A stretch of DNA of 43,214 bases from Candidatus Adlerbacteria bacterium RIFCSPHIGHO2_12_FULL_53_18 (GTDB lineage Bacteria > Patescibacteriota > Minisyncoccia > Phycocordibacterales > SBAW01), in contig MEWW01000017.1 of the NCBI GenBank assembly GCA_001775475.1, forward strand, positions 1 through 43,214, in the 5' to 3' direction. The notes under the pieces were generated by a model. The model did no database searches and was not told where the DNA came from. It worked only from the letters and a program-made list of their open reading frames with translations. Of the stretch, positions 17,907 through 34,982 are shown piece after piece. How positions within the stretch are numbered: the stretch's first letter is position 1; the number at the start of each line of letters is the position of its first letter. A program made the translations under genes and the position numbers.

Positions 17907-18269
17907 ATGAGTACGTTACAGAACTATAGTATCGGCTTCCTGCTCTCAATCGCGTTTACGCTCGCGGCTTTTTGGCTCGTGTGGCAGCACGTACAGGGCG
18001 CGGCGCTGTTCTCTGCAGAAAAGCTTGTCGTGCTGTTGGTGGGGCTCGCCGTAGCTCAGCTCTACGTCCAGCTTATCTGCTTTTTGCATCTGGGGGCCGA
18101 GAAGCAGAGGCCGCGATGGAGCCTCATCATTTTTGCCTTTGCCGCGGTTGTCGTTGTGGTGCTCGTGGGCGGCACTATCTGGATTATGTACCACCTAGAC
18201 CGGGGTCATACTGATCTTTCGGAAATTTATCCAAGCGGCACGGTTTCGCCCCAAACCCAGGATGATTAG
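17907..18269 (+). CDS. cyoD: Cytochrome bo3 quinol oxidase subunit IV
   Basis: Y.IGF.LS..FT..AF, AVAQL.VQL.CFLH and GTIWIM motifs. Original start is ATG 17907; in-frame ATG 17856 lies within the MITE. Confidence 0.9.
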   Translation: MSTLQNYSIGFLLSIAFTLAAFWLVWQHVQGAALFSAEKLVVLLVGLAVAQLYVQLICFLHLGAEKQRPRWSLIIFAFAAVVVVVLVGGTIWIMYHLDRGHTDLSEIYPSGTVSPQTQDD

Positions 18270-19442: not shown

Positions 19443-19470
19443 CCCGCAGATTTTATCATGTAAAAGAAAT

Positions 19471-19503
19471 CGCCGCCCTCGACCAGTGTGGTCTCGGGCG
19501 GCG
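19471..19503 (-). terminator. 33-bp terminator-like hairpin, copy 1
   Basis: CGCCGCCCTCGACCAGTGTGGTCTCGGGCGGCG with a T-rich tail on the minus strand; 30/33 identical to 20265-20297. Confidence 0.7.
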
Positions 19504-19522
19504 TATTCGCGGTGAAGGACGG

Positions 19523-20164
19523 TCAAGACGGCCGGCGCTGGATGGGGAAAATCCTGGGCAGGAGCTCGAACTTGCGCAGGTAGCTCTCCACCCTGCTGAC
19601 GTGGTAGTTGTGCTCGCGACGGTCGTAGATCAGCAGATGCCAGAAGCAGTAGCCGATCAATGTCAGCAGGATGCCGCCAAACGTTTTTTCTGCCCAGTGG
19701 GCGCCAAAGAGCATACCTACGCCGAGCGCGCATATCATACCCAAAAGAAGGAGGGTTGCCGGACCGGTGTCAGCCAGCTGGCGACGTAGCGACCAGTACT
19801 CGAGGTTGTTCCAGGCCAGGTCGAACACCCGTTCGTTGAGAGGTCTTGCGAGATTCTCCCTCAACCCTAAGATAGTCGGTGTCGCCTTGCCGTCGCAATT
19901 CTTCGCCGTGACGAAATATTCATAGAGCTGAGGTTTGCTGGGCGTACGATAGACAGAAATGACGTAGTCCCTGTACTCTTTGGCGCGCATTACTGCTGCC
20001 AGTACCTCATCGCGGTCAGGCTCGTTCTCAAGCAAGTCGTGGAGCTCGGCAAAAGCCTGATCGTAGCCTTGAGCGACCGGAAGTTCAAGCAGGAGATATG
20101 GATTGAGTGCTGCTCTAATAACCTCTTGCTCTTCTTCGCTAGAAAATTCACTTATGTGGGGCAT
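19523..20164 (-). CDS. Hypothetical protein with two C-terminal TM helices
   Basis: 213-aa ORF, GAGGAG upstream, terminator downstream. Confidence 0.7.
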   Translation of the reverse strand: MPHISEFSSEEEQEVIRAALNPYLLLELPVAQGYDQAFAELHDLLENEPDRDEVLAAVMRAKEYRDYVISVYRTPSKPQLYEYFVTAKNCDGKATPTILGLRENLARPLNERVFDLAWNNLEYWSLRRQLADTGPATLLLLGMICALGVGMLFGAHWAEKTFGGILLTLIGYCFWHLLIYDRREHNYHVSRVESYLRKFELLPRIFPIQRRPS

Positions 20165-20658: not shown

Positions 20659-20780
20659 GAGTGCCTCCTGTAATAATGTACGCGCCAGTTTCCCTTATCA
20701 TCCACTATGCGCCTGAAATAAATGCTGTCAACTTATGCTACACTACGGATATTACAAATATTCGTTAACTGTAAGTCAGT

Positions 20781-21503
20781 ATGAAAAAACTGGTTTTGGG
20801 CGCGGCATTGGTAAGTATGTTCGGGTTTGCTGGAGTTGCGTTCGCGGCGTATTCATTTTTTGGCGATGCGTCTGTGGTGGCGGGTGGTAATCCAGGTAAC
20901 GCAGCTGAGATTGTCTCGGATGCAACGGGCGCAGCGTTTGGCGGGGTGCTTATCCCTCTTGCAGCACCGGTTGCATGGGCAGACTTCGATACTTTGAGTC
21001 TCGATTACAACATAACGGACGATAACTGCGGCGGCGGCTCACCGCGTGCACAGGTACGTATAGACACTACCGGCGACGGCGTCTCGGACGGTTCTGTTCG
21101 CATTGCACTTGGTCCATCACCAAACTTCACGGGTTGCGCCGCTGGGTGGCAGAGCACAGGCAACCTTATAGGCAATGAAGATGCTGGACGCTATGATTAC
21201 AGCGTATTCGGCGGGTCGCCATTTACGACTTACAGCAATGCACCTGCAGTAGTTACAGCTGGACAAGTTGTTGGCGTTACAGTTCTTGTCGACGGCAGTT
21301 GGAGCGCGGCAGCTACTGGCGGTGACAGCGAGCAGACCACTCTTGTAGATAATATTAATGTAAACGGCGAGATTGAGACCTTTGATCCGCCTCCGGGCCC
21401 CGAAACGAAAGACGACTGCAAGGATGGCGGTTGGGAAGGGTTTGGCTTTGAGAATCAAGGCCAGTGTGTTGCTTCGGTGGTGAGTCAGAGCGAAAACCAC
21501 TAA
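20781..21503 (+). CDS. Secreted protein with C-terminal CK.GGW...F.NQG.C motif
   Basis: Signal peptide (AFA), Gly/Asp-rich beta domain, TKDDCKDGGWEGFGFENQGQCVASV tail. Confidence 0.75.
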   Translation: MKKLVLGAALVSMFGFAGVAFAAYSFFGDASVVAGGNPGNAAEIVSDATGAAFGGVLIPLAAPVAWADFDTLSLDYNITDDNCGGGSPRAQVRIDTTGDGVSDGSVRIALGPSPNFTGCAAGWQSTGNLIGNEDAGRYDYSVFGGSPFTTYSNAPAVVTAGQVVGVTVLVDGSWSAAATGGDSEQTTLVDNINVNGEIETFDPPPGPETKDDCKDGGWEGFGFENQGQCVASVVSQSENH

Positions 21504-21520
21504 GGTACATCCGATTAGTT

Positions 21521-21553
21521 CAACAAAACCGCCCTCAAGGGGCGGTTTTGTTG
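21521..21553. terminator. Intrinsic terminator
   Basis: Perfect 14-bp inverted repeat CAACAAAACCGCCC/GGGCGGTTTTGTTG. Confidence 0.8.
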
Positions 21554-21568
21554 TGCTATGCTCGAGGT

Positions 21569-22294
21569 ATGAAATACGCACCTTATGTAGCTCTCGCCAG
21601 TGGGCTTTTTATTCTTTCTGCAGTTGGGCTTAGTGCAGCGACCGAAGTTATTCCCAACCTTAAGGCACTACCGGCAAGCGACATCAGGCTCGCACAAAGC
21701 GGTAGCTCGACGTTGCTGCGTTTTAGCACCACAGGGTGGAACGACGGCGTAGGGCCACTCGAGGTTTTCGCGGGAGAGATAGATAGAGAAAACGGCAAGC
21801 AAAACGTCTATCAGCGCATCTATAACACCGACGGTACGGTTTCTCGAGAGCCGTTGGTCGGCTCGTTTATCTGGCACGAGGCGCATAATCATTTCCACTT
21901 TGAGGATTACGCGACCTACACGCTGCAGCTTGCAGGTGCACCCGGCGCTTCAGACCGGTTTGGCCAAAAAACCACCTTCTGCATCATGGATACGACGAGG
22001 ATGAACACCAAACTCTCCGGAGCGCCAAAGCGCCCCGTGTATGACACGTGCGGAAGCGTGGTGCAGGGTATGTCAGTTGGTTGGGGCGACACCTACGGCT
22101 ACCAGCTTGCAGGGCAGGAGATTGATGTAACCGGCCTTGCAGACGGTGACTATAAGCTCATCATCGAACTTGATCCTAAAGACAAACTTGACGAGACAAA
22201 CGAAGGAGACAACGTAAGCATAATAGACATCCGCATTTCAAACGGCACGGTAAGCGTCATCGGCGGGGGAAGCCGCGGGCGCGGCAACCACTAG
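21569..22294 (+). CDS. Secreted lysyl oxidase-family copper protein
   Basis: WHEAHNHFH Cu motif, KTTFCIMD, QGMSVGWGDTY, QEIDVTGL.DGDY.L and E.NE.DN motifs; signal peptide. Confidence 0.88.
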   Translation: MKYAPYVALASGLFILSAVGLSAATEVIPNLKALPASDIRLAQSGSSTLLRFSTTGWNDGVGPLEVFAGEIDRENGKQNVYQRIYNTDGTVSREPLVGSFIWHEAHNHFHFEDYATYTLQLAGAPGASDRFGQKTTFCIMDTTRMNTKLSGAPKRPVYDTCGSVVQGMSVGWGDTYGYQLAGQEIDVTGLADGDYKLIIELDPKDKLDETNEGDNVSIIDIRISNGTVSVIGGGSRGRGNH

Positions 22295-23109
22295 CGGCTG
22301 TTGCGGCTCTCGCGCTCTCTAGGCTCTGCCCAGAAGACGTGGGTAAAGACGCTATCGTTGCCGCCCAACTCAAGCTCAAAGAGTGACGCGCGGCCGTCTG
22401 ACGAGCGGCGGACTTCGCGCCCCCAGTGTGTGGGGTCGTCGCCAAGGTCGTCCTGATTTTTCCCCTTGTTTGAGCTTGTGCTCTGCACAAGGGTCGTTGT
22501 GGTGTCGAGGTGTGCGTAAATTTCCTCAAGCATTTCGTAGTCGTGAGCGTTGGGGTGCTGGTTAGGGTTAGGGTCGCTTGAATAATCCATACACGTGCCG
22601 AGCGGCGTATTGCTAAAGTTTTCGTCCTGATGGTCAAGGCCAAAGATATGTCCTATTTCCTGGCACATCACCAGCGCGCGCCAGGTCGGCTTGTTGTAGG
22701 TGCTCATGCCAAAGTACGTGTCGTTCATCTTAACGAGCCCCTTGGTGATGTGGTTGCTGGAGATCCAGATTTGTGCCACGCCAAGCCAGCCGGTACGGCC
22801 ATATTTTTTGGCGCATACCTCTGCTCGGCCAGTCTGTGCGGTGCAGCTGGTACCCGCTTTGCCGGCGACAACACTGGTGTCTAACACACTCGAGACGCTC
22901 CAGTCGGTTGAGGCGGTGCGCAGGTAGCTGTCCCACGCGCTTCCGACATTGTCGCCCAGCTGTAAGGTAAAGGGGTTGCTTGTGCGCGCCCAGTGGTAGG
23001 CACCGGAAACGTTGCCCCACACATGGTCTGCAGAAGCTACTGATGCAAGTAACGTCAGACCTAAAACACCCGCCGCTAATGCACCGAGAGCACGTTGTCT
23101 AGGAGTCAT
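22291..23109 (-). CDS. Secreted matrixin-like (metzincin) protein
   Basis: GWLGVA, QEIGHIFGLDH (HExxHxxGxxH with the first H replaced by Q) and CMDY Met-turn; signal peptide. Confidence 0.75.
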   Translation of the reverse strand: MTPRQRALGALAAGVLGLTLLASVASADHVWGNVSGAYHWARTSNPFTLQLGDNVGSAWDSYLRTASTDWSVSSVLDTSVVAGKAGTSCTAQTGRAEVCAKKYGRTGWLGVAQIWISSNHITKGLVKMNDTYFGMSTYNKPTWRALVMCQEIGHIFGLDHQDENFSNTPLGTCMDYSSDPNPNQHPNAHDYEMLEEIYAHLDTTTTLVQSTSSNKGKNQDDLGDDPTHWGREVRRSSDGRASLFELELGGNDSVFTHVFWAEPRERESRNSR

Positions 23110-23279
23110 ACGGTAAAAGCCTTAAGGATAATTCGATTCTATACTAACACGTACTATGCTCCGCAGAAAAATTCTGTCAACAAGGCATTTGACACGGCTT
23201 TGTAGCAGGAACATAGTGTATTTTAGATGAATCTGTGCTCTCCATGGGGAGAGCCAGCACCGGCAAGGAGGTTAAGGGG

Positions 23280-23849
23280 ATGTTTACAATGCGCACGTTG
23301 CTTGCGGTAGCCTTTGTCTTTGGCGGTGTCTCTTTTGGCAAAGCCGAAGAGCCAGAAGCGGGCCTCGGCACGCTCTGTATGGCCGACTTCCTGTACAAGG
23401 AGGTCAACTACCGAGAGAGTCAAGAGGGTTATCTGAGGCTGCTCGCAGTGCAGGAGATCAACAGTATTGCAGGCGTCACCGTCTGCGACAACTACCTCTA
23501 CAAGTACCTCAAGATTCGGCCAGTTGGTCTCATCAGCGTGCATGGGGCTGTGCACGAGCTATGGCAACTGCGCATAACCTTTCTGCTTTCTACGACGCTC
23601 ATCTATGTGCAGCACCATCCGAGTCAAATTTTCTATCTCTACGGTGCAATCGCTGCGGAAGGGCCGCTGATACCGATACCGGTCCCGCGGCCGGACCTGT
23701 CAGAGCGTGTACAAGCCCCCGACACAAACGAACCCGCTCCCGAGCCGAGGCCTCCAATCGACGACGAACTGCCGGAGCCCGACCCCTGGCTCCCGCCCGA
23801 TGAGTTTGACGTGCTCTCGCCTGAATACCTGCACGAAATTCGGTTCTGA
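23280..23849 (+). CDS. Secreted hypothetical protein (Cys-x35-Cys) with Pro/acidic tail
   Basis: AAGGAGG upstream, signal peptide, terminator at 23871-23900. Confidence 0.65.
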   Translation: MFTMRTLLAVAFVFGGVSFGKAEEPEAGLGTLCMADFLYKEVNYRESQEGYLRLLAVQEINSIAGVTVCDNYLYKYLKIRPVGLISVHGAVHELWQLRITFLLSTTLIYVQHHPSQIFYLYGAIAAEGPLIPIPVPRPDLSERVQAPDTNEPAPEPRPPIDDELPEPDPWLPPDEFDVLSPEYLHEIRF

Positions 23850-23959
23850 GCCGCCTGATGCCCACTTTCGGCCCCGCAAACCATCGCGGGGCTGTTTTTT
23901 ATAAAAACAAAAGCGCCGCCCAAAGAAATGCCTGGGCGGCGGGCAATGTTGGCCGAAAC

Positions 23960-24316
23960 TCACGGGAGACGGAACCACGTCCAGGTGAACCATTTCATTC
24001 CGGTCCTTGCCTCGATGTAGCTCAGACGTCTGACAGGCAGGCGTCTCTCGTTGATAGTGCTGTTGTCCGCCCGGTGATAGACCATGTCGGACATCTTGCG
24101 CCACTCGCAGCTTCCGAGCAGGAAGTCATACCATGTACGCGTAGTGAAGAATGCCAGAAAATTATCGGCGTCCACGACGTAGCGGACGGCGATATCCATG
24201 TCCATACGTGAGCGGCAAAAGACCCGCTCCTCCGGCACCATCCCGGTCTGCTCTTCGTGAGGAGCCGCGGTGAAAGTGACAAGCCCCACCACAGCGACTT
24301 TAACAAGGTGCAGCAT
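23960..24316 (-). CDS. Small secreted hypothetical protein (Cys-x35-Cys)
   Basis: AGGAGGAG upstream, hydrophobic N-terminus, clear paralogy to 20311-20658. Confidence 0.7.
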   Translation of the reverse strand: MLHLVKVAVVGLVTFTAAPHEEQTGMVPEERVFCRSRMDMDIAVRYVVDADNFLAFFTTRTWYDFLLGSCEWRKMSDMVYHRADNSTINERRLPVRRLSYIEARTGMKWFTWTWFRLP

Positions 24317-24440
24317 CGCACTCCTCCTGCGACGTTAGGCCCCTAACCCTATGCCTACTATGCCAGCGGGATACAAGATGTCAATAAAAGGAATGGGGCT
24401 GTTTTATAATTTTATAATTTCAACAATAGTAATACACAGA

Positions 24441-24511
24441 TTTCGCACGTGCGAAAAAAGTGAATAAACGCGCATACACCACTCTTAAGCTATAGCGTAA
24501 GAGTGGTGTAT
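24441..24511. promoter_or_regulatory. Two DNA palindromes, candidate protein-binding sites
   Basis: TTTCGCACGTGCGAAA (24441-24456, perfect) and ATACACCACTCTTA-AGCTATAGCG-TAAGAGTGGTGTAT (24474-24511). Confidence 0.5.
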
Positions 24512-24599
24512 AGAGGTAGAGCCTAAAAAATAAAAAAACGCGCCGCCAAGACTAGGAGGTCAGGGTGGCGCGGAAGCGTACGAAGAGAGGGGAGCCGGA

Positions 24600-25253
24600 T
24601 CAAGTCGGGCTTCTGGTTCGGTGGTAGTGGGTGACGCTCCCTGGCGGGAAGAGATCTTCCGGCGGATACAATATGTTCTGCAACTTCTTCTTATTCTTTT
24701 GGATTGAGAAGGGATAGTAGAAGAAAGCGCCGGCCAGACCGAGCATAAACATAAGGAAGCCGGTGAAGTAGGTGGCCACCAAGCCATCGAGCGGGGTGTA
24801 GAAGTGTTGCCAGCCGCCCGCCCACATGAGTATCGCCAACGCCACCATGAGAAACAGCAGCCCAAAAATGACCGAGATATGGTTCTTCTCCTCGGAGATC
24901 TCCAAGTAGCTCATGTTTTCGAGCTGCTTTTCGGCCAGCTTACGGAGCTCCTCGTCGCCGACAATGTCGTGGCCGGCGGGGTAGGCAAGCCACCGCGCTT
25001 TCGATTCTTTGTGTTTGACGACTACAAGATGGCGCATGCCGAACATGAACGGATAGACACGAGCAGTGGTACCGCCCTTGTGCATGATTTCCATTTCGAC
25101 GACGTTCTGCACTACTTTGGGCAGGCGCAGCAGGTCGGTTGCAAAGCCGATCGGTTTTGGCTCGCGTTGAAAGATGATAGGCGTGAGGTCGGCAACTGCC
25201 GCATTGAGAACACGCGTTCTCGAATATCCGGTTAACAGATGGTCTTCCGACAT
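24600..25253 (-). CDS. Hypothetical protein with two C-terminal TM helices
   Basis: 217-aa ORF, GGGAG upstream, terminator-like hairpin near 24539-24572. Confidence 0.7.
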   Translation of the reverse strand: MSEDHLLTGYSRTRVLNAAVADLTPIIFQREPKPIGFATDLLRLPKVVQNVVEMEIMHKGGTTARVYPFMFGMRHLVVVKHKESKARWLAYPAGHDIVGDEELRKLAEKQLENMSYLEISEEKNHISVIFGLLFLMVALAILMWAGGWQHFYTPLDGLVATYFTGFLMFMLGLAGAFFYYPFSIQKNKKKLQNILYPPEDLFPPGSVTHYHRTRSPT

Positions 25254-25326
25254 CGAACACTCCCGTGGTTGTGTTGAAGATCGTTCATGTTTACATAGCT
25301 AAAATTCCGGCACAAAGTCAAATTTG

Positions 25327-25362
25327 ATATTGACGCTCTTCATGAAGAAATCTCGAATATTT
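25327..25362. repeat. 36-bp direct repeat, left copy
   Basis: ATATTGACGCTCTTCATGAAGAAATCTCGAATATTT; 35/36 identical to 27846-27881. Confidence 0.9.
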
Positions 25363-25374
25363 GTAGAAAAATAA

Positions 25375-25401
25375 AAGGGCGGGGTCGAAGACCCCGCCCT
25401 T
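25375..25401 (-). terminator. Terminator of the GT2/deacetylase unit
   Basis: AAGGGCGGGGTC-GAA-GACCCCGCCCTT with an upstream A-run (T-run on the minus strand). Confidence 0.75.
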
Positions 25402-25425
25402 GACACCTAGTCGGTGCCGCCTTCT

Positions 25426-25689
25426 TCAGCCGCAGCTTGCAGCCGGCTGGCCGCTCGCGTCGACGCGCTTCTCGCACTCCTTCTTGGTGATGCAGATTTC
25501 CTGCACTACGCCGCCGATCTCGGCCTGCACGACATTGCCGTCGCATGGACTGCTGTTCGTCGCGTAGCTCCAGAGGCATCCGCACCCAATGATTGCTGCC
25601 GCAATGGGCAGCCGCAGCGCTCCGTGGGCCAAAGCACCCACGGGGTCGCAGACAAGTCCCGCGTTAAATGACAATGTACTTCTCCTCAT
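25426..25689 (-). CDS. Small Cys-rich exported hypothetical protein
   Basis: Hydrophobic segment followed by several Cys; lies between the deacetylase and the terminator. An alternative TTG start at 25674 follows GAGGAG. Confidence 0.5.
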   Translation of the reverse strand: MRRSTLSFNAGLVCDPVGALAHGALRLPIAAAIIGCGCLWSYATNSSPCDGNVVQAEIGGVVQEICITKKECEKRVDASGQPAASCG

Positions 25690-25723
25690 GTTGTGCGCTT
25701 ATGCGCAGGTGGAAGTTCAGGCG

Positions 25724-26575
25724 TCAGTTCTGTGCCGACAGGCTCGGGATCGCCCGCAGGGCGTCCTTCACCGTTACGGCTTCGACTGCTCCCTCGAGGA
25801 CCTTGCCCAACGTACAGCGGGCAATTTGCTCGAAGTTGTCGGTCGACACTTCATACTTGTTTTCGTCGCTCTGGCCCGGTTCCGGCACGATATCGTGGAA
25901 GCCGAGCACGAGCCAAGAGCGCTCTTTTGCTGCACGGCCGACGGCCGCACAGACGTCTTTGACCGCCGTGTCGCGGGTGACGATGAGGCGGTTCACCTGA
26001 TAGTGGTCGATGCCGGTAAGTGGGTTTTGCCCCTCGCCGGCGTCGCTTTCTCCCCAGGCGCCGACCTGATTGTCGTAGAGATTTTTCACCGTCTCGAGCA
26101 CCGCGTCGTTGTAGTCGCCGGACGGCGAAGCAAACGACGTGGGATAGAAGCCGAGGTTGCGATACATCACCGCCGCCGGATAGCCCAGCTCTTCACGCAG
26201 CTGATGCTCGTCGACAGACGTCAGCATCGGGTGCGAGTGAGAATGAGAGCCCACCTCCCAGTGCATGTCGGTCCAACTCCGAACCTGCTCCCAACTCATC
26301 GTCGCCCCTCTCTCGCCGACTCCGGTTGGGGTGTCGGCAATCCCATCGGTGTTGATGAAGAGCGTACCCGGCAGTCCGTACTTCCGCACGATAGCGCGGC
26401 CGTACTCGTACTGGCTGAGAAGCCCGTCGTCAAACGTGATCGAGACCTTGCCCGTGGGGGTTGGCCGAGGCGCCGGTGTAGGCACCTGCGGTTGTGCCGC
26501 GAGTGCAACGGTAGCAAACACCGCTGCGAAGCACGTATGTGCAAAGCAAGCGGTAATGAGGCGTAGAATCCGCAT
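25724..26575 (-). CDS. Secreted polysaccharide deacetylase (CE4/NodB)
   Basis: TFDDG, HSHSHP, FASPSG and LGFH motifs; signal peptide; GAGGAG upstream. Confidence 0.92.
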   Translation of the reverse strand: MRILRLITACFAHTCFAAVFATVALAAQPQVPTPAPRPTPTGKVSITFDDGLLSQYEYGRAIVRKYGLPGTLFINTDGIADTPTGVGERGATMSWEQVRSWTDMHWEVGSHSHSHPMLTSVDEHQLREELGYPAAVMYRNLGFYPTSFASPSGDYNDAVLETVKNLYDNQVGAWGESDAGEGQNPLTGIDHYQVNRLIVTRDTAVKDVCAAVGRAAKERSWLVLGFHDIVPEPGQSDENKYEVSTDNFEQIARCTLGKVLEGAVEAVTVKDALRAIPSLSAQN

Positions 26576-26613
26576 GAGTAAGTTCTCCTCTCTTGTGCGG
26601 GTTGGTAGGGAAG

Positions 26614-27726
26614 TCAGTGACCTTTATCCCACGAGTGGAGCTTGTCCCGAAGGATCCACTCCTTCCAGATGGAATACAGGTATACGCCGAAGCTTACATA
26701 CTGCGTCACTAGAGTGGCGGGCAAGCTTGCCAGGGCCGTCGAGAACATGCCAAGCCGATATGCCCGCCACAGCGCCGGCACTCCCATGGTGATCATCTGG
26801 AGTGCCATCATCCATCCAATCGCCGAGACAACCCCGTAGCCTGCCCACAAGAGCATCACAGGCAGCATCATGGGGCCGATCAGAAACCACACGACATACA
26901 CGTAGATGAGCAGCTGGAGACGCCAGCTGCCGAACTTGTAGAACTTACGCACGGCGATGTTCTGCAGGAATCCGCGATACCACCGCGAAAGCTGCTTCAC
27001 ATAGATGCCGAAGGTCGGTGGGTCTACCGGGTAGCACTTGGCTTCAGGGGCAAAATACACGTGATACCCCTTGCCGGTTGCTTCCCAGGTTAAGTCCAGG
27101 TCCTCCGCCATTGTCCGTTCGTTGAAGTGGCCGAACTCCTCGAGCGTTTCCTTGGTACGGAAAACGCTGAAGCAGCCGGAGGCGACAAGCACCATCCGGT
27201 TGTGGTTCTGCGCCGGCTTGATAATCGTGAGGCCGTAGAGATATTCGATAAACCGGCCGCGTTCCCACAGTGTTTGTATCTTCTGCGGGACAACAAAGCC
27301 CGAGACAATGAGCGTTTTCGGATCGTTGAAGTAGCGGATGGTCTTCTCGACTGCATCGGGCGCCACAATCGTGTCTGCATCCACCGTGACGAACAAGTCC
27401 GTCTTGACGAATGCTAGAGCAAGATTTTGCGCCTGCGCCTTGGTGCCGCGGTTCTTCGGCGTGCGATACACCGCGGCGCCGAGCGACCGGGCGATGTCGC
27501 CCGTGCGGTCGGTAGAGCAGTCGTCGACGACGATGATTTCGTCGAGACGGTAGGTCTGCGCCTGGAGGCTTCTGATCGTTGAAGCGATCGAAACTTCTTC
27601 GTTGTAGGCCGGGATTATTGCTGTAATAGACAATCGCCCGCTACTCGGGCGATTGAAGGCCACTTCTTTCGGTGATAGCCCGAGGAACCAGCGCCCCCCG
27701 TCTATCAGGTGTTCTCTCAGCGCCAT
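26614..27726 (-). CDS. Processive GT2 glycosyltransferase (PgaC/IcaA-like)
   Basis: IPAYNEE, VDDCSTD, DADT, AEDLDL and QLSRW (QxxRW) motifs; C-terminal TM helices. Confidence 0.9.
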   Translation of the reverse strand: MALREHLIDGGRWFLGLSPKEVAFNRPSSGRLSITAIIPAYNEEVSIASTIRSLQAQTYRLDEIIVVDDCSTDRTGDIARSLGAAVYRTPKNRGTKAQAQNLALAFVKTDLFVTVDADTIVAPDAVEKTIRYFNDPKTLIVSGFVVPQKIQTLWERGRFIEYLYGLTIIKPAQNHNRMVLVASGCFSVFRTKETLEEFGHFNERTMAEDLDLTWEATGKGYHVYFAPEAKCYPVDPPTFGIYVKQLSRWYRGFLQNIAVRKFYKFGSWRLQLLIYVYVVWFLIGPMMLPVMLLWAGYGVVSAIGWMMALQMITMGVPALWRAYRLGMFSTALASLPATLVTQYVSFGVYLYSIWKEWILRDKLHSWDKGH

Positions 27727-27845
27727 CTCTTTGGCCTTTCTTGCGGTTGGATTGACAAAAAGGAGAATAATTACAATGTCCAAGTCTCTCGCAATTTTAA
27801 CCTATAAAACATGTTTTGTAAATGAAGCTGATTTTGCCTATTTTA

Positions 27846-27881
27846 ATATTGACGCTCTTCATGAAGAAATCCCGAATATTT
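27846..27881. repeat. 36-bp direct repeat, right copy
   Basis: ATATTGACGCTCTTCATGAAGAAATCCCGAATATTT. Confidence 0.9.
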
Positions 27882-27945
27882 TGTGCACATTTTGTCCACG
27901 CGTTACCCACGGGTTGTACACAGCTTACCAACAGGTTTACCCACA
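27881..27945 (+). promoter_or_regulatory. Array of six DnaA-box-like 9-mers at 11-bp spacing
   Basis: TTGTGCACA, TTGTCCACG, TTACCCACG, TTGTACACA, TTACCAACA, TTACCCACA starting at 27881, 27892, 27903, 27914, 27925 and 27937. Confidence 0.6.
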
Positions 27946-27964
27946 AAAGGTGCTAAAGTGGAAA

Positions 27965-28240
27965 TAAGGAAACCAGCGCGTGTGCTAGCGTTCACAGACG
28001 TGTTTTGTATTTCGAACGAAATATAAGGCGCGGGTTCTGCTCGTTCGTACATATTACTCATGGTGCAACCGAGACTCTTTAATGCATCGCGCGCGGGACT
28101 CTCAACGAGAGCTGCTTTTGCTTCTTGCCTAAAAAGCGAGTAACAAGAGCAGCTCTTTTTGTTTGAGATCTGCGAGGTTGGTCGGTCAGCGACACTAAAG
28201 AGCAGGGCTTCACTGAAAACACCTTCAGGTAAATTTCAGG
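27965..28240 (+). ncRNA. Candidate structured 5' leader / cis-regulatory RNA of the sipW operon
   Basis: Extended -10 TGCTAAAGT (27951), several G-U-containing stems, embedded terminator-like hairpin 28108-28164. Confidence 0.55.
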
Positions 28241-28309
28241 GGGCTTAACGGCACAATGATAGAGGTTTATCCATTAGTAGCTTATTAACTAGCAAATTAT
28301 TAAAAAAAT

Positions 28310-30016
28310 ATGAAACGACTTTTAGTTAGCGCAGGTACGCTGATCTTCATCGGCGCAGTTGCAATCAGCGCAACAGGCGCATTCTTTAGCGACACTGAAA
28401 CGTCGACAGGGAACACGTTTGCAGCAGGAGAGCTCGATCTCACGATTGACAACACCAGCTACGGGTTTGATTGGAACGATCCGTTAGCTACAAACCCGAC
28501 AGGTGTATGGGGACTTAACGCAGCCAACTCATGGCAACTCGCAGACCTCACGAACCAGCTATTCTTTAGCTTCGATGACCTTAAACCGGGAGATTACGGT
28601 GAGGACACCATCTCGCTCCATGTGCAAAACAACGCATGGGCATGTATGGCTCTTGATCTCACTGGAACACCAGAAAATGGTGTCAACGAGCCGGAAGCCG
28701 ACTTCCCAGACCTTACTGTCGGTGCTGACGAGGGTGAGCTCCAGAATTACCTCTCGTTCCTCTTCTGGAACGACGACGGCGACAATGTTCTTGAGACTGG
28801 AGAGACGGTAATTCCGGAATTAAGTGGCCTTCCGGGCTCTGCCTTTACTGGCAACTGGCTCGCGATTGCAGACCAAGGCGACACGCCACTTCAAGCTGGC
28901 ACGACGACGTGGATTGGCAAGGGTTGGTGCTTTGGCACGATGACCCCAAATCCAGTTGTGCAAGACAATGCATCCTCAAGTCCTCCTGTGGCGCCGGATC
29001 GCATCGGCTTTACCTGCAACGGTGCAGGCGACCACAACATCGCACAGACCGACGGTATCGTTGTAGACGTCCACTTCTACGCAGAGCAGTCAAGAAATAA
29101 TCCAAACTTCTTGTGCTCACAACTCCCTCCGCCTGATGGTCGCCAAGTCGTTGGTGCAGCAGCTGCAACATATGACGATCCTGCAATCTGTAATGTAACA
29201 GTTGACCTCGGCGAATCGCTCCAAGCTGCTATTGATGTGGCTGCTCCGGGAGACACAATTTGTGTTGATCCGACATATACAGGTGTGGGTGACGTTGCAA
29301 GTGTGATTGAAGTTAATGAACTTAATCTAACCATTGCAGGTCTTGGCGCAGCGGGCGCCGCAACGGTCAGCAAGGGTCTTCACATTGACGCAAATGGTGT
29401 AACGATCAAAGGCTTGACACTCAACGCGCACCCTCTCATCGAGGCTAGCGAACAAGCGGCGATCTACATTAATTCTGCGATCACAGGTACTACTATCACT
29501 CATAACCTGATTGATGGTCCTCCAGGCGCTATCGCGGCCAATGCTAAGGGCATCATCACGGAGATCGGGAACGATGGAACAGCAGGTGCTTCTGGCATCC
29601 TGGTTGCCCACAACCTGATTCGTGGCTGGAATCAGGGCATCTTCTTCAACACAGCAAACGCTGAAGTTAGATTCAACGACATCTATGCAAACACAGTGGG
29701 TGTTGCAAATGATGGCCCGCACAACACAACAATTCACCACAACGACTTCGACGGTAACACTGCCGAGGCCGTTGGTGTAGCTCCTTCCGCCAATAACGGA
29801 ACAGCTAACAATGGTGACTTGGATGTAAATACAAACAACTTCACTCCGGCGGGAGCAGGGAATAATGTAAATCATTATCTTGCTTCAGTTGTAGGAGGTG
29901 CAGATGTAAATGCTACGAATAACTTCTGGGATAGTGAAGTCGAAGCAGATAGGACAAATGTTCCTGCTGAGGTAGATACTTCATCTCCTGCAGCAGTAGC
30001 GTTCCCTGAAAACTAG
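28310..30016 (+). CDS. TasA/CalY-like SipW-processed protein with C-terminal parallel beta-helix
   Basis: TGAFFSDTETSTGNTFAAG SipW-class N-terminus, LKPGD core motif, then SLQAAIDVAAPGDTI and Asn-ladder beta-helix repeats. Confidence 0.85.
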   Translation: MKRLLVSAGTLIFIGAVAISATGAFFSDTETSTGNTFAAGELDLTIDNTSYGFDWNDPLATNPTGVWGLNAANSWQLADLTNQLFFSFDDLKPGDYGEDTISLHVQNNAWACMALDLTGTPENGVNEPEADFPDLTVGADEGELQNYLSFLFWNDDGDNVLETGETVIPELSGLPGSAFTGNWLAIADQGDTPLQAGTTTWIGKGWCFGTMTPNPVVQDNASSSPPVAPDRIGFTCNGAGDHNIAQTDGIVVDVHFYAEQSRNNPNFLCSQLPPPDGRQVVGAAAATYDDPAICNVTVDLGESLQAAIDVAAPGDTICVDPTYTGVGDVASVIEVNELNLTIAGLGAAGAATVSKGLHIDANGVTIKGLTLNAHPLIEASEQAAIYINSAITGTTITHNLIDGPPGAIAANAKGIITEIGNDGTAGASGILVAHNLIRGWNQGIFFNTANAEVRFNDIYANTVGVANDGPHNTTIHHNDFDGNTAEAVGVAPSANNGTANNGDLDVNTNNFTPAGAGNNVNHYLASVVGGADVNATNNFWDSEVEADRTNVPAEVDTSSPAAVAFPEN

Positions 30017-30022
30017 TCCTCT

Positions 30023-30064
30023 CTAGCCGAATCCAGCACTAACACTTAGTGCTGGGCGGGCTAG
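30023..30064 (+). other. Intercistronic stem-loop after the first TasA-like gene
   Basis: CTAGCC..CCAGCACTAA-CAC-TTAGTGCTGG..GGCTAG with no U-tract. Confidence 0.55.
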
Positions 30065-30118
30065 GTGGGATTTATTCCTAGCGTCGTTGGATTAATTAAT
30101 AGTTTTTACTAACTCAGT

Positions 30119-31618
30119 ATGAAAAGGATACTCTTGGGCACAGTTACGATAGTAGGGGCACTTGCAGCAATGTATATCGGGGTGACGGGCGCGTTTTTTA
30201 GCGACACAGAGACAAGTACCGGCAACACCTTTGCCGCCGGCGCGATTGACCTCTTGGTTGATAACGAGTCGTACTACAACGGCAATGTATGCGCCGAGAC
30301 GGCTCCTGACAGCGGCATTTGGCAATGGCAAGGCAATGCATTGTTTCCTGTCCCCGGCACCGAGTGCGACACGAGCTGGGAACTCGACAACTTAACCGGA
30401 CACCTCTTCTTTAACTTTACCGACATCAAGCCTGATGATGAAGGCGAAGACACTATCTCCCTGCACGTAAACACCAACGACGCTTATATGTGTATGAACA
30501 TTGCTCTCACAGAGAATGATGACAATAACACAACCGAGCCCGAGGGCTTGGTAGACCCAACCGCCAACCCCGACACCGAATGGGATGGCGAGCTCGCGCA
30601 GACTCTACAAATGGTCTGGTGGGCTGACGACAGCGACAATGTGCTGGAGCACGGCGAGACAATACTTACGGGCGACGGAACCGTTGTCGGCGGTGTTGAA
30701 ACCTTGTTTAACCTCGCCTCAACCAGCGGGCCGTTTGTGGTGGCGCTGGCAGACTCTGAAAACAATGTATGGGACCCACAGAATCCGGGTCCAGTACCGG
30801 GTGAAGAAACTCGCTACATCGGCAAGGCATGGTGCTTTGGCACACTGACTATCAGCCCTGTTCCATTTGACACTGGAGTGAGTCCTGCAGTTGACCCAGG
30901 GGTGTTATGCGACGGAACATTGCTTGGCAACGAAACCCAGACCGACAGCGCTCTGCTCGACGTGACGTTTGACGCAGTGCAGGCGCGCAACAATCCGGAT
31001 TTTGTGTGTCTCGAAGATGAGTGCACCTTCAACGAGCAGGTAGACCTGCTTGTTGCAACCGCTAAGTTTGAGAATCCGGAGGTAACTACCGCTCAAAACT
31101 GGGACGTCTTCGGCTCGCCGGTAGACGGCTGGAACGTTGATTGGCGCGGCGATATACCAGCAACCTTTGGCCCGCAAAATCGTCCGGCAGTCGCCAACCT
31201 TGAGTACCACGAAGGTGTCCTTGGTGCGGCGTTTGAGGGCGACCAGTATGCTGAGCTCGACTCCGACTGGGGAGGCCCTTCAGACGCGGGCACTGGTGAA
31301 CCGGCTTCTGTAAGTATCTATCGCAACTTTGTAACGGTGCCGGGTGCGCAGTACTTGCTCAAGTATCACTTCTCGCCACGTCCTAACACTCCAGCAGCAG
31401 ATAACAATCTTGAAGCAAAAGTAGAAGGTGTTGCACTTAACACCACGGGCCCAACTGCGGGCGGTGGAGCAATTGCATGGAGTGAAATTGTGGTCCCATT
31501 TATCGCTGGTGATGCAAGCACTGAAATCCGCTTTACCGACCTTGGTACCGCAAACTCGCTCGGTACATTCCTCGACAATGTTCGCTTGTACCAGATCAGC
31601 TGTCCGGTGGTGCAATAG
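30119..31618 (+). CDS. TasA/CalY-like SipW-processed protein with C-terminal DUF642/galactose-binding-like domain
   Basis: Same TGAFFSDTETSTGNTFAAG N-terminus, IKPDD core, C-terminal FE.P...EGDQYAELD...GTFLDNV jelly-roll pattern. Confidence 0.83.
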   Translation: MKRILLGTVTIVGALAAMYIGVTGAFFSDTETSTGNTFAAGAIDLLVDNESYYNGNVCAETAPDSGIWQWQGNALFPVPGTECDTSWELDNLTGHLFFNFTDIKPDDEGEDTISLHVNTNDAYMCMNIALTENDDNNTTEPEGLVDPTANPDTEWDGELAQTLQMVWWADDSDNVLEHGETILTGDGTVVGGVETLFNLASTSGPFVVALADSENNVWDPQNPGPVPGEETRYIGKAWCFGTLTISPVPFDTGVSPAVDPGVLCDGTLLGNETQTDSALLDVTFDAVQARNNPDFVCLEDECTFNEQVDLLVATAKFENPEVTTAQNWDVFGSPVDGWNVDWRGDIPATFGPQNRPAVANLEYHEGVLGAAFEGDQYAELDSDWGGPSDAGTGEPASVSIYRNFVTVPGAQYLLKYHFSPRPNTPAADNNLEAKVEGVALNTTGPTAGGGAIAWSEIVVPFIAGDASTEIRFTDLGTANSLGTFLDNVRLYQISCPVVQ

Positions 31619-31650
31619 TTCTACCCGCTAATGTTCTCTCAACAATCTGA

Positions 31651-32667
31651 ATGAGAGCCGCAACCCACAAATCTTTGGTGGCGAGAGCACTCCTTGTAGC
31701 AGGGGTACTCTCGCTTGCATCCGGATTGTTTGTAGTGCGTGCGCAGGAGCCAGAGAGCACCTATGCCCGCTCGTACAGCTATCACAGTTTTGACCTTACC
31801 GTAGACAGTGAGGCCTCTTACAACGGGGTGCCGTGGCCTGATGGCACGTGGGACTTAAAAGACCTAAAGCCGTGGAAGGACAAGTTTTGGAACTTTGGCG
31901 ACATCAAGCCGGGCGACAAGGGGGAGAACACGATTAGCCTCCATGTAAACAAAGACGCCTGGGTGTGTCTCGAGTTCTTAAACTTAAAGGAGCAGGAGAA
32001 CGGCGAAAACGAACCGGAGTCTTTAGACGACAACAGTGCGCCCAGCGAAGGCGAGCTAGCCGACCAGATGGAGTTTTTTGCCTGGCACGACGACGGCGAC
32101 AACATTTTTCAAGTAGGGGAGATACCGATTTTTGGCACGACGACCCAGGCCGCCACGCAAGTGTTAAACAACAAGGTGTACCCTATAGCCGACTACACAC
32201 ATGGCCCGGCAATCCCCAAAAACCAGACCAAGTACTTCGGTGTGTATTGGTGCGCGGGCAACCTCACGGTTGACGTTGCAACGGCTTTTCTAGCCTGCGA
32301 CGGCTCTGCCATGAACAACGACTCGCAGACCGACAGCATGTCGGTGGATGTGCAGCTGGTTGCCGTGCCCAAAAATGACAAGCCGAAGTTTACCTGCGAC
32401 AAAATCGTAGTGCCGCCGCCGGGCGAGCAGTGCGAGGTGGGCAAGGTGGAAATAAAGGTGGAGAACAACGCCGTAATCATCAACAACACATCCTCAAACA
32501 GCAACACTGGAGACAACTCGGCGGGCCCGGGCGGCACGGTAACTACCGGCAATGCGAGTTCAAATTCAAATACGATCAACGTGGTTAACACGACCATAAT
32601 CCAAAACGGGGGCACCAGCACTTCGAGCATCATCAACATCCTGCAAAATATGATCAGACGGCGATAA
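31651..32667 (+). CDS. TasA-like core protein lacking the SipW N-terminal motif, Asn/Thr-rich tail
   Basis: Shares DIKPGD.GE.TISLHV, EPE, GEL, W.DDGDN, WC.G and QTD with the two upstream paralogues, but has an ordinary VRA signal peptide. Confidence 0.78.
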   Translation: MRAATHKSLVARALLVAGVLSLASGLFVVRAQEPESTYARSYSYHSFDLTVDSEASYNGVPWPDGTWDLKDLKPWKDKFWNFGDIKPGDKGENTISLHVNKDAWVCLEFLNLKEQENGENEPESLDDNSAPSEGELADQMEFFAWHDDGDNIFQVGEIPIFGTTTQAATQVLNNKVYPIADYTHGPAIPKNQTKYFGVYWCAGNLTVDVATAFLACDGSAMNNDSQTDSMSVDVQLVAVPKNDKPKFTCDKIVVPPPGEQCEVGKVEIKVENNAVIINNTSSNSNTGDNSAGPGGTVTTGNASSNSNTINVVNTTIIQNGGTSTSSIINILQNMIRRR

Positions 32668-32669
32668 GT

Positions 32670-33263
32670 ATGAAAACCCTCGGCAAAATAATCTACGGAC
32701 TTTTTGTGACAGCGCTGGTTGGCGTTGCGGCACTGCTCTTGGTCTCGCTTATGCCGATAACGGGCAACCTCGAACTCAAGATTGTAAAATCCGGCTCAAT
32801 GGAGCCCTCGATACCAACCGGCTCTATCGTGGTGGTGATGCCGCGCGCGAGCTACCAGGTGGGGGATGTGGTGACCTTCGGTAAGGACACCCCCCGCGAA
32901 ATACCGACCACGCACCGCGTTATTGCCAAGCGGGTTGAAAACGGGCAGACGGTCTTTACGACCAAGGGCGATGCCAACGAAGAGCAAGACCCGCGCGACA
33001 TCGCGCTCCGCGAGGTTATCGGCGGCGTACTCTTCCACGTGCCGTACCTGGGCTATGTGCTCGACTTTGCCCGGCAACCACTCGGCTTTGCGCTCTTAAT
33101 CGGGCTGCCAGCGACCATGATTGTCGTTGACGAGGCACTTAATATCGCTAGGGAGGTGGCGGCATTGCGCCGTCGGCGACATCAAGGTTCGACCTTGATG
33201 AATATGCCGGTGCCGCAGAAACCCCGAGTATTTTCTGAAAGAACGCGCATACCAACGCTATGA
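32670..33263 (+). CDS. sipW: SipW-type (ER-type) signal peptidase I
   Basis: SGSMEP, THRV and TKGDAN motifs (Ser-His type); adjacent to cognate substrates. Confidence 0.9.
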   Translation: MKTLGKIIYGLFVTALVGVAALLLVSLMPITGNLELKIVKSGSMEPSIPTGSIVVVMPRASYQVGDVVTFGKDTPREIPTTHRVIAKRVENGQTVFTTKGDANEEQDPRDIALREVIGGVLFHVPYLGYVLDFARQPLGFALLIGLPATMIVVDEALNIAREVAALRRRRHQGSTLMNMPVPQKPRVFSERTRIPTL

Positions 33264-34336
33264 TTTTTTATCGGCGACATACGCATATCATCCCCACGCT
33301 GATGCTCTGCGCGGCGGCGCTGCTCCCGGCACAGCCCCTTATCACCAACAGCGCCTACGGCGACACGGAGACCTCGGTGGGGAATATCTTTCAAGCTGGA
33401 GTGTGGGGCGGCATTAGTACCGAGCCGGATCCTTTTGACATAGTGCTAAACGAGTTTTTGCCGAACCCAGACAGCACTGCTAATGGCCTAAATTTTGGAG
33501 ACGACAACGACAGCAACCCGCTTGGCGAGTGGGTTGAGCTCTACAACAAAGGCGATGTCGCTCAAGATCTTGCCGGCTGGTATCTGGAGGATGCTTCTGG
33601 CGGCGGCGGTAACACTCAGGCGGTTATCTCGGGCAGTAACACCGACACGGGCGGGACTATCATTGCTGTGCACGGATGGCTCGTAGTTTTTATGAATAAG
33701 ACTACGCTCAACAACACCGGCGACGAGATACATCTTTTCACCCCCACAGACGTAGAAGTAGATTCTGTCGTCTATGATGATCCAAGTAATGCGTGCGAGC
33801 TGCCTCCGACGCCCGGGGATGAAAATTCTACCTCTACACCAACGGGCACTCCGGATAACAGTCCTAACGCCGATTGTATTGCCAACCAAGTTGCACCAAA
33901 TAAATCATACGCACGTATCCCAGACGGCACTGGCGCATGGATTGACCCTATACCAACGCCGGGTGCACCGAATATCCTTGACGAAGAGTCTGCAGAGGCA
34001 CTGGGGCAAAGTGGGGGAGGAGCAGAGGCTGCAGCAGCAGAACCCGAACTTGAAGTCGAGGTCAGCAATGAACCACTCGAGATCACGGAGCCCGCATCAT
34101 CGACGCCGAGCAATGAGCCAGAATTTGAAGTCGAGGTAAGCGACGAACCGCTCGAAGTGGTGGAGCCAACGCCGGAGCCAGCACCGACAGAGGACCCCGC
34201 GCCGGAAGAAACAGTAGAGGAGGAACCAACTCCTGAATCTGAGCCTGACCCAGAGCCCGAACCGGAGCCGGAACCTGAAGTAGAAGAAGCGCCGGCCGAG
34301 GTTGCCCCCGAACCGGCGCCAGCTTCAGAAGAATAA
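33260..34336 (+). CDS. SipW-motif protein with lamin-tail domain and Pro/Glu-rich tail
   Basis: AYGDTETSVGNIFQAG, IVLNEF...EWVELYN...LAGWYLED...LNNTGDEI...PTPG, acidic EP repeats. Confidence 0.8.
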   Translation: MIFYRRHTHIIPTLMLCAAALLPAQPLITNSAYGDTETSVGNIFQAGVWGGISTEPDPFDIVLNEFLPNPDSTANGLNFGDDNDSNPLGEWVELYNKGDVAQDLAGWYLEDASGGGGNTQAVISGSNTDTGGTIIAVHGWLVVFMNKTTLNNTGDEIHLFTPTDVEVDSVVYDDPSNACELPPTPGDENSTSTPTGTPDNSPNADCIANQVAPNKSYARIPDGTGAWIDPIPTPGAPNILDEESAEALGQSGGGAEAAAAEPELEVEVSNEPLEITEPASSTPSNEPEFEVEVSDEPLEVVEPTPEPAPTEDPAPEETVEEEPTPESEPDPEPEPEPEPEVEEAPAEVAPEPAPASEE

Positions 34337-34337
34337 T

Positions 34338-34982
34338 TTAATTGACCTCAACCGAGCCCGTGGCCTCTACGTTTGCGTCAACGTTTGCCTTAAGCGGTCG
34401 GCCCCACTCGTCGGTCTCTCTGCCATCGGACGTGCCTTCCGGTAGGGGGTCTTCAACGAGTGTTGAAGCCGCGATGTTTGCCGCCGCGGCAAGCGTGCCG
34501 GTGACCTTGAGCATTAAGAAGTCGAGTGCGCCCTGCTCGCCTTCGCCCGTGGTGCTTGTGTGTGCCTCAGCCTGGGCGTAGGCAAGGCTCTCCGCCTGGT
34601 TTGCGAGCGCCTGCCCGACCTTTATCGCCACTTCCTTGGCTTCGTCGAGGCGATTTTCTTCTTTGAGCATCGTGAGATACTCGTCGATGCCTTTGAGCTG
34701 GGTATTAAAGTTTGCAAGTACTACTGTTTGTGCCTCGGTGTCAAACTGTCCCTTGAGAGACGCCTCCGAAGCCTCACGCAGGCGGCGCTCTGCGGCGGCT
34801 ATCTGCCAATCCACTTTTGAGCGGCCGCCTCCGGCAAAGGCCGCGGACACCTTTTCATTTACCCCAAGTTTAACGCCATACAACATGCTGCCCGGCAGAG
34901 CACTACCTGCTGCTGCAACCGTTCCGCCTGTTAGAAATAACACCGCACAAAGCCCAACGATGATCTTGGTCATACGTGACAT
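34338..34982 (-). CDS. DUF5667-like exported protein
   Basis: ALPGSMLYGVKLGVNEKV...AERRLREA helical motif after a signal anchor. Confidence 0.75.
   Translation of the reverse strand: MSRMTKIIVGLCAVLFLTGGTVAAAGSALPGSMLYGVKLGVNEKVSAAFAGGGRSKVDWQIAAAERRLREASEASLKGQFDTEAQTVVLANFNTQLKGIDEYLTMLKEENRLDEAKEVAIKVGQALANQAESLAYAQAEAHTSTTGEGEQGALDFLMLKVTGTLAAAANIAASTLVEDPLPEGTSDGRETDEWGRPLKANVDANVEATGSVEVN

Follow-up and report, generated by a model that had tools for sequence, protein, structure and literature searches.

A SipW-type operon for putative TasA-superfamily surface fibres, and a probable strain-specific cargo beside it, in a Candidatus Adlerbacteria genome

The probable fibre operon and its closest described relatives

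The closest described counterpart of the locus reported here is the tapA-sipW-tasA operon of Bacillus subtilis (8AUR, 5OF1), in which a dedicated SipW-type signal peptidase adjoins substrates that carry the SipW-cognate signal; the donor strand of TasA comprises residues 28–38, and the N terminus of TapA mimics this strand (available part of PMC9674648). A dedicated SipW-type peptidase beside substrates with such a signal was likewise observed in a window of 43,214 nucleotides (nt), the whole stretch of DNA analysed, which is contig C17 of the 539,999-base genome (18 contigs, 89% complete) of Candidatus Adlerbacteria bacterium RIFCSPHIGHO2_12_FULL_53_18, a member of the Patescibacteria. Thirteen genes, lettered A to M in Table 1, occupy 20781–34982 of this window, and it is likely that 28310–34336 represents a conserved five-gene operon for SipW-dependent TasA-superfamily surface fibres, the rest being a composite cargo. 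Comparisons were made with 60 relatives and with 400 genomes of the class (G000 denotes the genome under study, other G numbers related genomes and L numbers the loci examined), and the counts are descriptive only, given the kinship among the relatives and the fragmented state of many assemblies.

The genes H, I, J, K (SipW) and L lie on one strand and are tightly packed, with gaps of 102, 32 and 2 nt, SipW thus beginning 2 nt past J, followed by a 4-nt overlap of the SipW stop with the L start. H, I and J share an acidic N-terminal module of about 270 residues (31–42% identical over about 290 aa, with I 42% identical to H and J 31% identical to both), in which four cysteines are invariant and a W-x-DDGDN loop is nearly so. 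The peptidase scored 106.1 bits against TIGR02228 (sigpep_I_arch, cut-off 51.85) and remained below the Bacillus SipW equivalog NF046067 (104 bits, cut-off 190), and a second, ordinary signal peptidase is present on contig C10 of the same genome. The SipW-cognate signal model TIGR04088 (cut-off 19 bits) was passed by H (22.0) and I (19.4), with no match for J, so that cognate signals and an adjacent dedicated peptidase are found together, as in B. subtilis. Behind the module, H gave weak NosD matches in a profile search and I matched TIGR04362 at E 1.4e-10, which is under the cut-off of that model. The N terminus of L carries the motif DTETS-x-GN-x-F-x-AG that is common to H and I, followed by no TasA-like body, and its tail is acidic and rich in Pro and Glu.

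The operon would resemble that of B. subtilis in the predicted jelly-roll core of its subunits, whose best structural match is TasA, in the N-terminal donor-strand docking predicted below, and in an accessory protein, L, that has only the strand motif in common with TapA. It differs in having three paralogous subunits, each with a large C-terminal beta-helix, choice-of-anchor-C-like domain or low-complexity tail, in the four invariant cysteines and the DDGDN loop of the core, in matches to PF12389 (Peptidase_M73) that are sub-threshold and confined to the N terminus, in an accessory protein that is a lamin-tail-domain (LTD) protein and not a TapA homologue, and in the order subunits, sipW, accessory.

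Conservation of this arrangement was observed well beyond the window. A SipW-type peptidase over the TIGR02228 cut-off occurs in 11 of the 60 relatives, and one to four H/I/J paralogues stand directly upstream of it in all 11 loci of that sample, as they likewise do in G243, which belongs to another family. J-type orthologues (52–65% identity) are located at the matching position, without exception directly ahead of sipW, in L005, L006, L009 and L012. On the downstream side of SipW, an LTD orthologue is present in L005 (60%), L051 (51%), L010 (34%) and L003 (29%). The profile of the module recovered 3502 representatives at E<=1e-3, and a stricter threshold of E<=1e-30 still left 941; the module stands at the N terminus of every representative (proteins of 263–992 aa). 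The C-terminal domains differ among the 10 members sampled, with SpaA_2 in seven, VWA in three and DUF642 in one, and four of these members passed the PF12389 threshold, only over the first ~50 profile positions. The sequence-only reading of 20781–34336 had proposed a sipW/TasA-like fibre operon, and this proposal is borne out by the TIGR02228 and TIGR04088 passes, the three paralogues upstream of the peptidase and the conservation in relatives.

A SipW-type locus of a different kind was observed in G198 (contig C7, L024:8976-13411), where three secreted proteins share a different N-terminal motif (FEAHVINVTAKIEN-like) and no H/I/J homologue was found by tblastn at E 1e-8. This locus was left out of the count of 11 loci, which covers the sample of 60 relatives only, and its secreted proteins are probably a second SipW substrate family in the class.

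The fold of the H module was modelled with AlphaFold2 (AF2; pLDDT 74.2). The best PDB match of the model was the TasA fibre 8AUR (Foldseek E 8e-4, TM 0.34/0.41), which also ranked first among 48,161 chains by VIA (Z 7.5, root-mean-square deviation 3.9, 152 residues aligned); 5OF1 and 5OF2 reached Z 6.3, and three more donor-strand filaments of the archaeal and bacterial TasA superfamily were placed within the top 11, namely the Saci_0406 threads 7PNB (Z 6.1), AbpA 7UEG (Z 5.8) and the cannulae 9H8B (Z 5.2). The likeness to these three is at the level of the fold (Z 5.2–6.1), whereas AbpA, Saci_0406, the cannulae and AbpX-like proteins are single-domain proteins of ~150–220 aa. In a three-copy model of H residues 25–275, the median score was 0.53 against 0.01 for the best control, with a contact agreement between runs of at least 68% and a partner pLDDT of at least 73. 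In the calibration of the score, this mark was reached by 20 of 30 solved homo-pairs and by 1 of 23 solved single chains. Residues 25–42 of one modelled copy rest on strands 44–46, 80–95 and 251–260 of the next copy, a predicted geometry that agrees with the donor strand of TasA (PMC9674648, available part).

From these models we infer that the subunits polymerise. Cleavage by SipW would expose the first ~18 residues of the module (FFSDTETSTGNTFAAGEL), and this segment would, according to the model, fit into the following subunit as its donor strand, so that a fibre of subunits with differing C-terminal domains would display adhesin- or enzyme-like modules. L, which has the donor-strand motif and lacks the acceptor body, would be TapA-like in supplying the first strand or anchoring the fibre, and by this analogy it is a candidate nucleator or anchor.

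Several observations weigh against a TasA-type fibre. H and I scored 20.5 and 19.9 bits against PF12389, below its cut-off of 22.5, and J had no match to it; the sequence likeness to TasA is limited to the signal and the donor-strand segment (PF12389 positions 23–50 of 196), and a profile of the 27-sequence fibre-module alignment matched no PDB sequence at E<=10. The Z of 7.5 lies below 8 and is graded 'middling' by the structure-search tool. The calibration of the docking score was made with two copies, whereas three were modelled here. The docking pass may also reflect the memory that the model has of the solved TasA fibre, and because that fibre has already been solved, the pass indicates likeness and is not proof.

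The modest fold likeness and the missing sequence-profile tie to solved TasA proteins would also suit H, I and J being monomeric SipW-processed surface proteins, adhesins or enzymes, whose module serves only for secretion or anchoring, as would their large C-terminal domains, which are unlike TasA, and the finding that monomeric TasA is self-complemented and soluble (PMC9674648, available part). We regard this as rather unlikely, since the conserved N-terminal strand is predicted to dock in the sheet of a neighbouring copy far above the controls, the operons hold several paralogues together with a strand-only L-type protein as in TasA/TapA, and the top structural matches are mostly donor-strand filaments.

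A variable site between conserved flanks

The crowding of secretome genes at the locus is real: an N-terminal hydrophobic signal-like segment was found in 10 of the 13 genes and transmembrane segments in the other three (E, GT2 and SipW). The whole stretch (all 30 bins) is covered at 99+% identity by contigs from three other samples, and contigs from other samples bridge the GT2-H, A-LOX, C-D and E-repeat junctions, so the gene arrangement is not an assembly chimera. The stretch at 20781–34336 occurs in groundwater and soil metagenomes, and the protein homologues are labelled by their sources as Patescibacteria, Paceibacterota or Parcubacteria. GC content ranges from 0.50 to 0.56 across the region with no outlier and hence no sign of a foreign origin for the accessory block, and no tRNA or Rfam family was found within 19.5–35.2 kb.

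Genomes of the same genus differ in what they carry at this site. The conserved flanks of the site are the genes at 15359–19733 and the atp operon from 35043: in G027, homologues of 15359–19733 are succeeded by the fibre operon and this by the atp operon, while A, LOX, C, GT2 and CE4 are all missing; G033 shares this left flank, behind which the operon runs as far as the contig end; G026 has both flanks and only gene C in between; in G009, G023 and G035 the operon lies directly before the atp operon; and in G013 C comes first, an A-like protein of 459 aa second and the operon third. A homologue of gene M was also found at the equivalent position in L006. These comparisons make it probable that ~19.7–28.3 kb is strain-specific cargo in a variable site of a composite locus, with the fibre operon as the conserved system. 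The variable site would hold three unrelated items, the first a LOX paralogue with the co-directional beta-sandwich protein A, the second the stand-alone metzincin-like C, of a family very common in Patescibacteria, and the third a repeat-bracketed GT2-CE4 cassette. On the synteny data, the clustering of secretome genes arose by accretion at this site; cargo and fibre genes share a cell-surface destination, and there is no comparative evidence that they form one pathway.

In the class sample, the co-occurrence of LOX or C with SipW was in keeping with chance. Among the 60 relatives, LOX was detected in 2 and a SipW-type peptidase in 11, with no genome shared, and C in 5, two of which also carry SipW. 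Among the 400 genomes of the class, LOX was found in 7, SipW in 55 and C in 44; LOX and SipW meet in one genome (~0.96 expected), on different contigs, C and SipW in five (~6 expected), and C and LOX in two (~0.8 expected), again on different contigs (G100 and G384).

The sequence-only reading had combined these genes, cross-linker and remodelling protease included, into a single toolkit, and had named the co-occurrence and co-location of LOX, C, GT2/CE4 and sipW in relatives as the matter to check, which proved largely absent. Most of its gene calls stand, namely the secreted lysyl oxidase, the GT2 and secreted deacetylase on one strand divergent from the fibre operon (PF00535 and PF01522), and the small secreted proteins (A and D, both with N-terminal hydrophobic segments). 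A polysaccharide product is plausible as well, since this pair, a processive type with QLSRW and a secreted CE4, could yield an exopolysaccharide that is deacetylated in part. Its matrixin-like protein survives in part, since gene C exists and is metzincin-like, with Gln in place of the first His and no Pfam match.

That fibres, a polymer like poly-N-acetylglucosamine (PNAG), LOX and protease jointly build and remodel one attachment matrix is distinctly improbable. In its favour, all 13 genes are secreted or membrane proteins within 13.5 kb, GT2 and the first fibre gene diverge across a 526-nt spacer, LOX retains its copper-site and cofactor residues, and the 18 lysines of J (5.3%) are possible LOX substrates. 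However, LOX shares a genome with SipW in only one of the seven LOX-bearing genomes of the class and in neither of the two relatives, and never a contig; LOX adjoins a GSDH-type dehydrogenase in all 10 other Patescibacteria LOX loci (L014-L023, including a second copy in this genome), and fibre, GT2, CE4 and A genes are all missing from the 12 other loci of the B-type LOX. Moreover, GT2 has no orthologue above 34% identity in the 60 relatives, the fibre operon stands alone in genomes of the same genus, H, I and L are lysine-poor (1.1%, 1.2% and 0.8%), and C is without the first zinc-binding His.

Against a purely composite locus it should be said that genes with a common task are often found collected in accessory islands, and that poor conservation is no proof that the genes of this strain do not interact. 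Less than 10 kb separates C from a SipW operon in G000, in G013 of the same genus and in G243 of another family, and directly beside a B-type LOX in the Saccharibacteria metagenome-assembled genome (MAG) L034, so that C may have some functional tie to its neighbours.

Enzymes and orphan genes of the cargo

Lysyl oxidases are known in prokaryotes, mostly as a lone LOX domain, and their function is described as open in the available part of PMC4448552, where the five bacterial clades with LOX listed in 2015 do not include Patescibacteria. Gene B is likewise a lone LOX domain, with 57.3 bits against PF01186 (cut-off 20.4, profile positions 76–201 of 204). It has in common with animal LOX/LOXL (5ZE3) the PF01186 catalytic half, the WHxxHxHxH motif, an aligned Lys and Tyr and secretion, and differs in being short (241 aa), in lacking a propeptide and SRCR domains, and in that its relatives in the phylum pair with the GSDH dehydrogenase. 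The alignment of B to LOXL2 (5ZE3) had an E of 5.3e-9, with WHEAHNHFH kept and with the Lys (GQKTTFC) and Tyr (GWGDTYGY) of B aligned to GHKASFC and GCWDMYRH, respectively. These two residues we take to be the ones that form the LTQ cofactor. B has 1041 homologues, some labelled 'lysyl oxidase family protein', and its short subtype is also present in Saccharibacteria, Nitrospira and Rhizobacter MAGs.

The second LOX of this genome (contig C10, L016:5769-6653) is 38% identical to B and is directly followed by the GSDH gene (L016:6659-7801, a PF07995 glucose/sorbosone-dehydrogenase-type beta-propeller). Nine metagenome loci with a B-type LOX, mostly short, have no neighbours in common with the window. 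In the Nitrospira and Rhizobacter MAGs, a conserved small Cys-rich secreted protein that is unrelated to A precedes the short LOX (L035:9354-9830, L036:9365-9817, L037:1430-1798), which suggests that the partners or substrates of LOX are lineage-specific.

Gene A reached no Pfam or NCBIfam match. Its 142 homologues, all labelled hypothetical and about 245 aa long, belong to Patescibacteria and Dehalococcoidia, and its Atlas model resembles small PEP-CTERM/IPTL-CTERM secreted proteins of other phyla (TM 0.62–0.64). The C terminus of A (21410–21481) and the 459-aa secreted protein beside the G013 fibre operon (L005:392-1771) have a Cys-flanked motif in common, C-K-D/N-G-G-W ... F-x-N-Q-G-Q-C-V, placed after a Pro-rich linker, which may be a sorting or anchoring tag. 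In addition, 816 nt that include all of A are missing from a contig of run X4, in which just 4 other letters separate 20731 from 21548; this junction weakly suggests a variant without A, its shorter side being only 30 letters.

Gene C resembles the metzincins (M10, M12B) in its ExxHxxGxxH motif, its CMDY Met-turn, its secretion and perhaps its fold (TM 0.50–0.57 to M10 clusters for the Atlas model, pTM 0.83), and differs in that Gln stands where metzincins carry the first zinc-binding His (QEIGHIFGLDH) and in reaching no Pfam threshold. This Gln is invariant in the seven aligned homologues and was found in 119 of 120 database homologues (one undetermined, none with His), and the CMDY Met-turn likewise in 119 of the 120. 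C itself had no Pfam match at E<=0.01, PF00413 included, and homologues of C gave sub-threshold Pfam matches to Reprolysin_5 in six of seven cases (best E 3.5e-5) and to M10 in two of seven (best E 0.0073), so the weak sequence matches lean reprolysin-like and not matrixin. Against the PDB, sequence and profile searches returned motif-level matches only (EcxA, E 0.75; ADAMTS-5, E 0.48–1). The assignment of C as a matrixin (M10, PF00413) was rejected, as it has no HExxH and lies below the Pfam threshold, and an AF2 model from seven sequences was unusable (mean pLDDT 42) and was not used for the fold search. The family comprises 7181 clusters at E<=1e-5, all labelled 'hypothetical', with ~60% identity across lineages and no Pfam model, and in 20 further C loci the remaining genes of the region were all absent from the surrounding 5 kb, and a conserved neighbour was likewise lacking.

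The positions of B and C raise the thought of a small module of their own, independent of the fibres, in which C matures or aids the oxidase for amine oxidation, H2O2 production or modification of a host surface. The two genes are adjacent and convergent here, with 3' ends overlapping by 4 nt, a tandem arrangement with a 7-nt gap is seen in the Saccharibacteria MAG, where C is directly upstream of LOX (56% and 62% identity), and two of the seven LOX genomes of the class also carry C. Such a module is nevertheless very unlikely: 42 of the 44 class genomes with C have no LOX, no LOX was found within 5 kb in the 20 further C loci, 11 of the 12 other B-type LOX loci are without C, and in G100 and G384 the two genes lie on separate contigs. 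That mixed donor-strand fibres of several paralogues, nucleated or anchored by the LTD protein, are locked covalently by an acquired LOX (possibly with C) that oxidises lysines of J or of a host surface is very unlikely, and would, if true, give this strain a prokaryotic analogue of a cross-linked extracellular matrix.

The GT2-CE4 cassette resembles the PNAG systems (PgaC/PgaB, IcaA/IcaB) in having a processive GT2 with QxxRW followed by a secreted CE4, and differs from them in scores far below the cut-offs of their models (PgaC_IcaA 120.7 bits against 422.3, PgaB 22.3 against 321.9, IcaB 17.7 against 248.35) and in that Pfam and NCBIfam scans of the region revealed no counterpart of PgaA/PgaD or IcaC/IcaD. 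Gene G belongs to GT2 (PF00535, 113 bits, cut-off 23.3), with QLSRW at residue 264 and C-terminal hydrophobic segments, and TIGR03937 PgaC_IcaA was its best NCBIfam match. Gene F scored 71.7 bits against PF01522 (cut-off 23.1), with TFDD at residue 47, HSHSH at 111 and an N-terminal hydrophobic segment, and reached no NCBIfam equivalog, HfsH and PdaB, like PgaB and IcaB, being far under their cut-offs. CE4 follows GT2, and a looser GT2-CE4 pairing was observed in one of four related GT2 loci. The two enzymes probably make a partly deacetylated beta-linked polymer of N-acetylhexosamine (HexNAc) type.

The cassette and its terminator are bracketed by a pair of 40-nt direct repeats that are identical at 38 of 40 positions, with no third copy in the 540-kb genome; the strong terminator-like hairpin 25401-25375(-) abuts the distal copy on the inside, and each copy lies 60–110 nt upstream of the start of a minus-strand gene (GT2 and E). 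The bracketing is consistent with insertion of the cassette, and the repeat may represent either a scar left by insertion or a regulatory site that was duplicated. Contigs of four DNA runs showed neither a junction between the two repeats nor a cassette-less variant, and contigs cannot show absence.

The orphan genes D and E have no homologue in the related loci examined; D matched nothing in Pfam or NCBIfam and E nothing in Pfam. A promoter-like site (23189-23217) precedes D and a terminator-like site (23869-23894) follows it. Four promoter-like sites with identical TTGACA and CATAGT hexamers and a spacing of 16–17 nt, all in the accessory block, were observed at 20704-20731(-), 23153-23180(-), 23189-23217(+) and 24357-24384(-), and these hexamers may reflect the promoter consensus of the organism. 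A 118-aa open reading frame at 23960-24316(-), with the promoter-like site 24384-24357 on one side and the strong terminator-like hairpin 23941-23914 on the other, may be an unannotated small gene.

Table 1. Positions of genes A to M and of the 40-nt direct repeats in the window
Feature	Position	Strand	Remarks
A, secreted 240-aa beta-sandwich protein	20781-21503	+	65 nt upstream of LOX, same strand
B, short lysyl-oxidase-family protein, 241 aa, secreted	21569-22294	+	probable start 21569; reading frame open from 21464
C, secreted metzincin-like protein	22291-23109	-	QExxHxxGxxH and CMDY Met-turn
D, small secreted Pro-rich orphan	23235-23849	+	hydrophobic segment at residues 16-34
E, orphan membrane protein	24600-25253	-	C-terminal hydrophobic segments, residues 123-184
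40-nt direct repeat, copy 1	25323-25362	.	lies past the terminator that follows CE4
F, secreted CE4 polysaccharide deacetylase	25724-26575	-	PF01522, E 6.9e-20
G, membrane GT2, processive synthase type like PgaC/IcaA and NodC	26614-27783	-	PF00535, E 1.9e-32
40-nt direct repeat, copy 2	27842-27881	.	59-98 nt upstream of the GT2 start
H, putative fibre subunit	28310-30016	+	SipW-type signal, TasA-like jelly-roll (~residues 25-275), C-terminal beta-helix (NosD-like)
I, paralogous putative fibre subunit	30119-31618	+	C-terminal domain like choice-of-anchor C / DUF642
J, third paralogue	31651-32667	+	deviant N-terminal motif, Asn/Ser/Thr-rich tail
K, SipW-type (archaeal/ER-type) signal peptidase I	32670-33263	+	TIGR02228
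L, lamin-tail-domain (LTD) protein	33260-34336	+	PF00932, 55 bits (cut-off 34.3)
M, DUF5667 membrane-anchored protein	34338-34982	-	PF18915, E 4.3e-8; between the operon and atpB

Significance for the surface biology of Patescibacteria

The fibre operon belongs to a known kind, and the accessory genes are probably unrelated to it; the nearness of animal-matrix-like enzymes to such an operon should not be read as a matrix pathway in this case. Within the literature searched, Patescibacteria appear in one sentence of PMC9245690, which in its available part merely lists them among the phyla with PF12389 matches; beyond that sentence nothing was found in the TasA and donor-strand literature on the Candidate Phyla Radiation (CPR), and Patescibacteria homologues of TasA may be named in Supplementary Data 1 of PMC9245690. 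A 2026 preprint treats calcium-responsive TasA-superfamily fibres (AbpX clade) and, in the portion available, makes no mention of Patescibacteria; likewise, no treatment of Patescibacteria or of such multidomain subunits was found in the available parts of the TasA-superfamily literature. Searches for LOX with Patescibacteria or CPR, or for LOX with sorbosone or PQQ sugar dehydrogenases, returned nothing relevant, and both the LOX-GSDH pair and the Gln-variant metzincin-like family represent biology for which no description was found in the literature searched.

The attachment of ultrasmall Patescibacteria to hosts and surfaces is poorly understood, and the operon described here is a widespread candidate for it, with candidate fibre subunits whose C-terminal domains appear swappable, VWA, SpaA-like, DUF642 and beta-helix domains being among those sampled.

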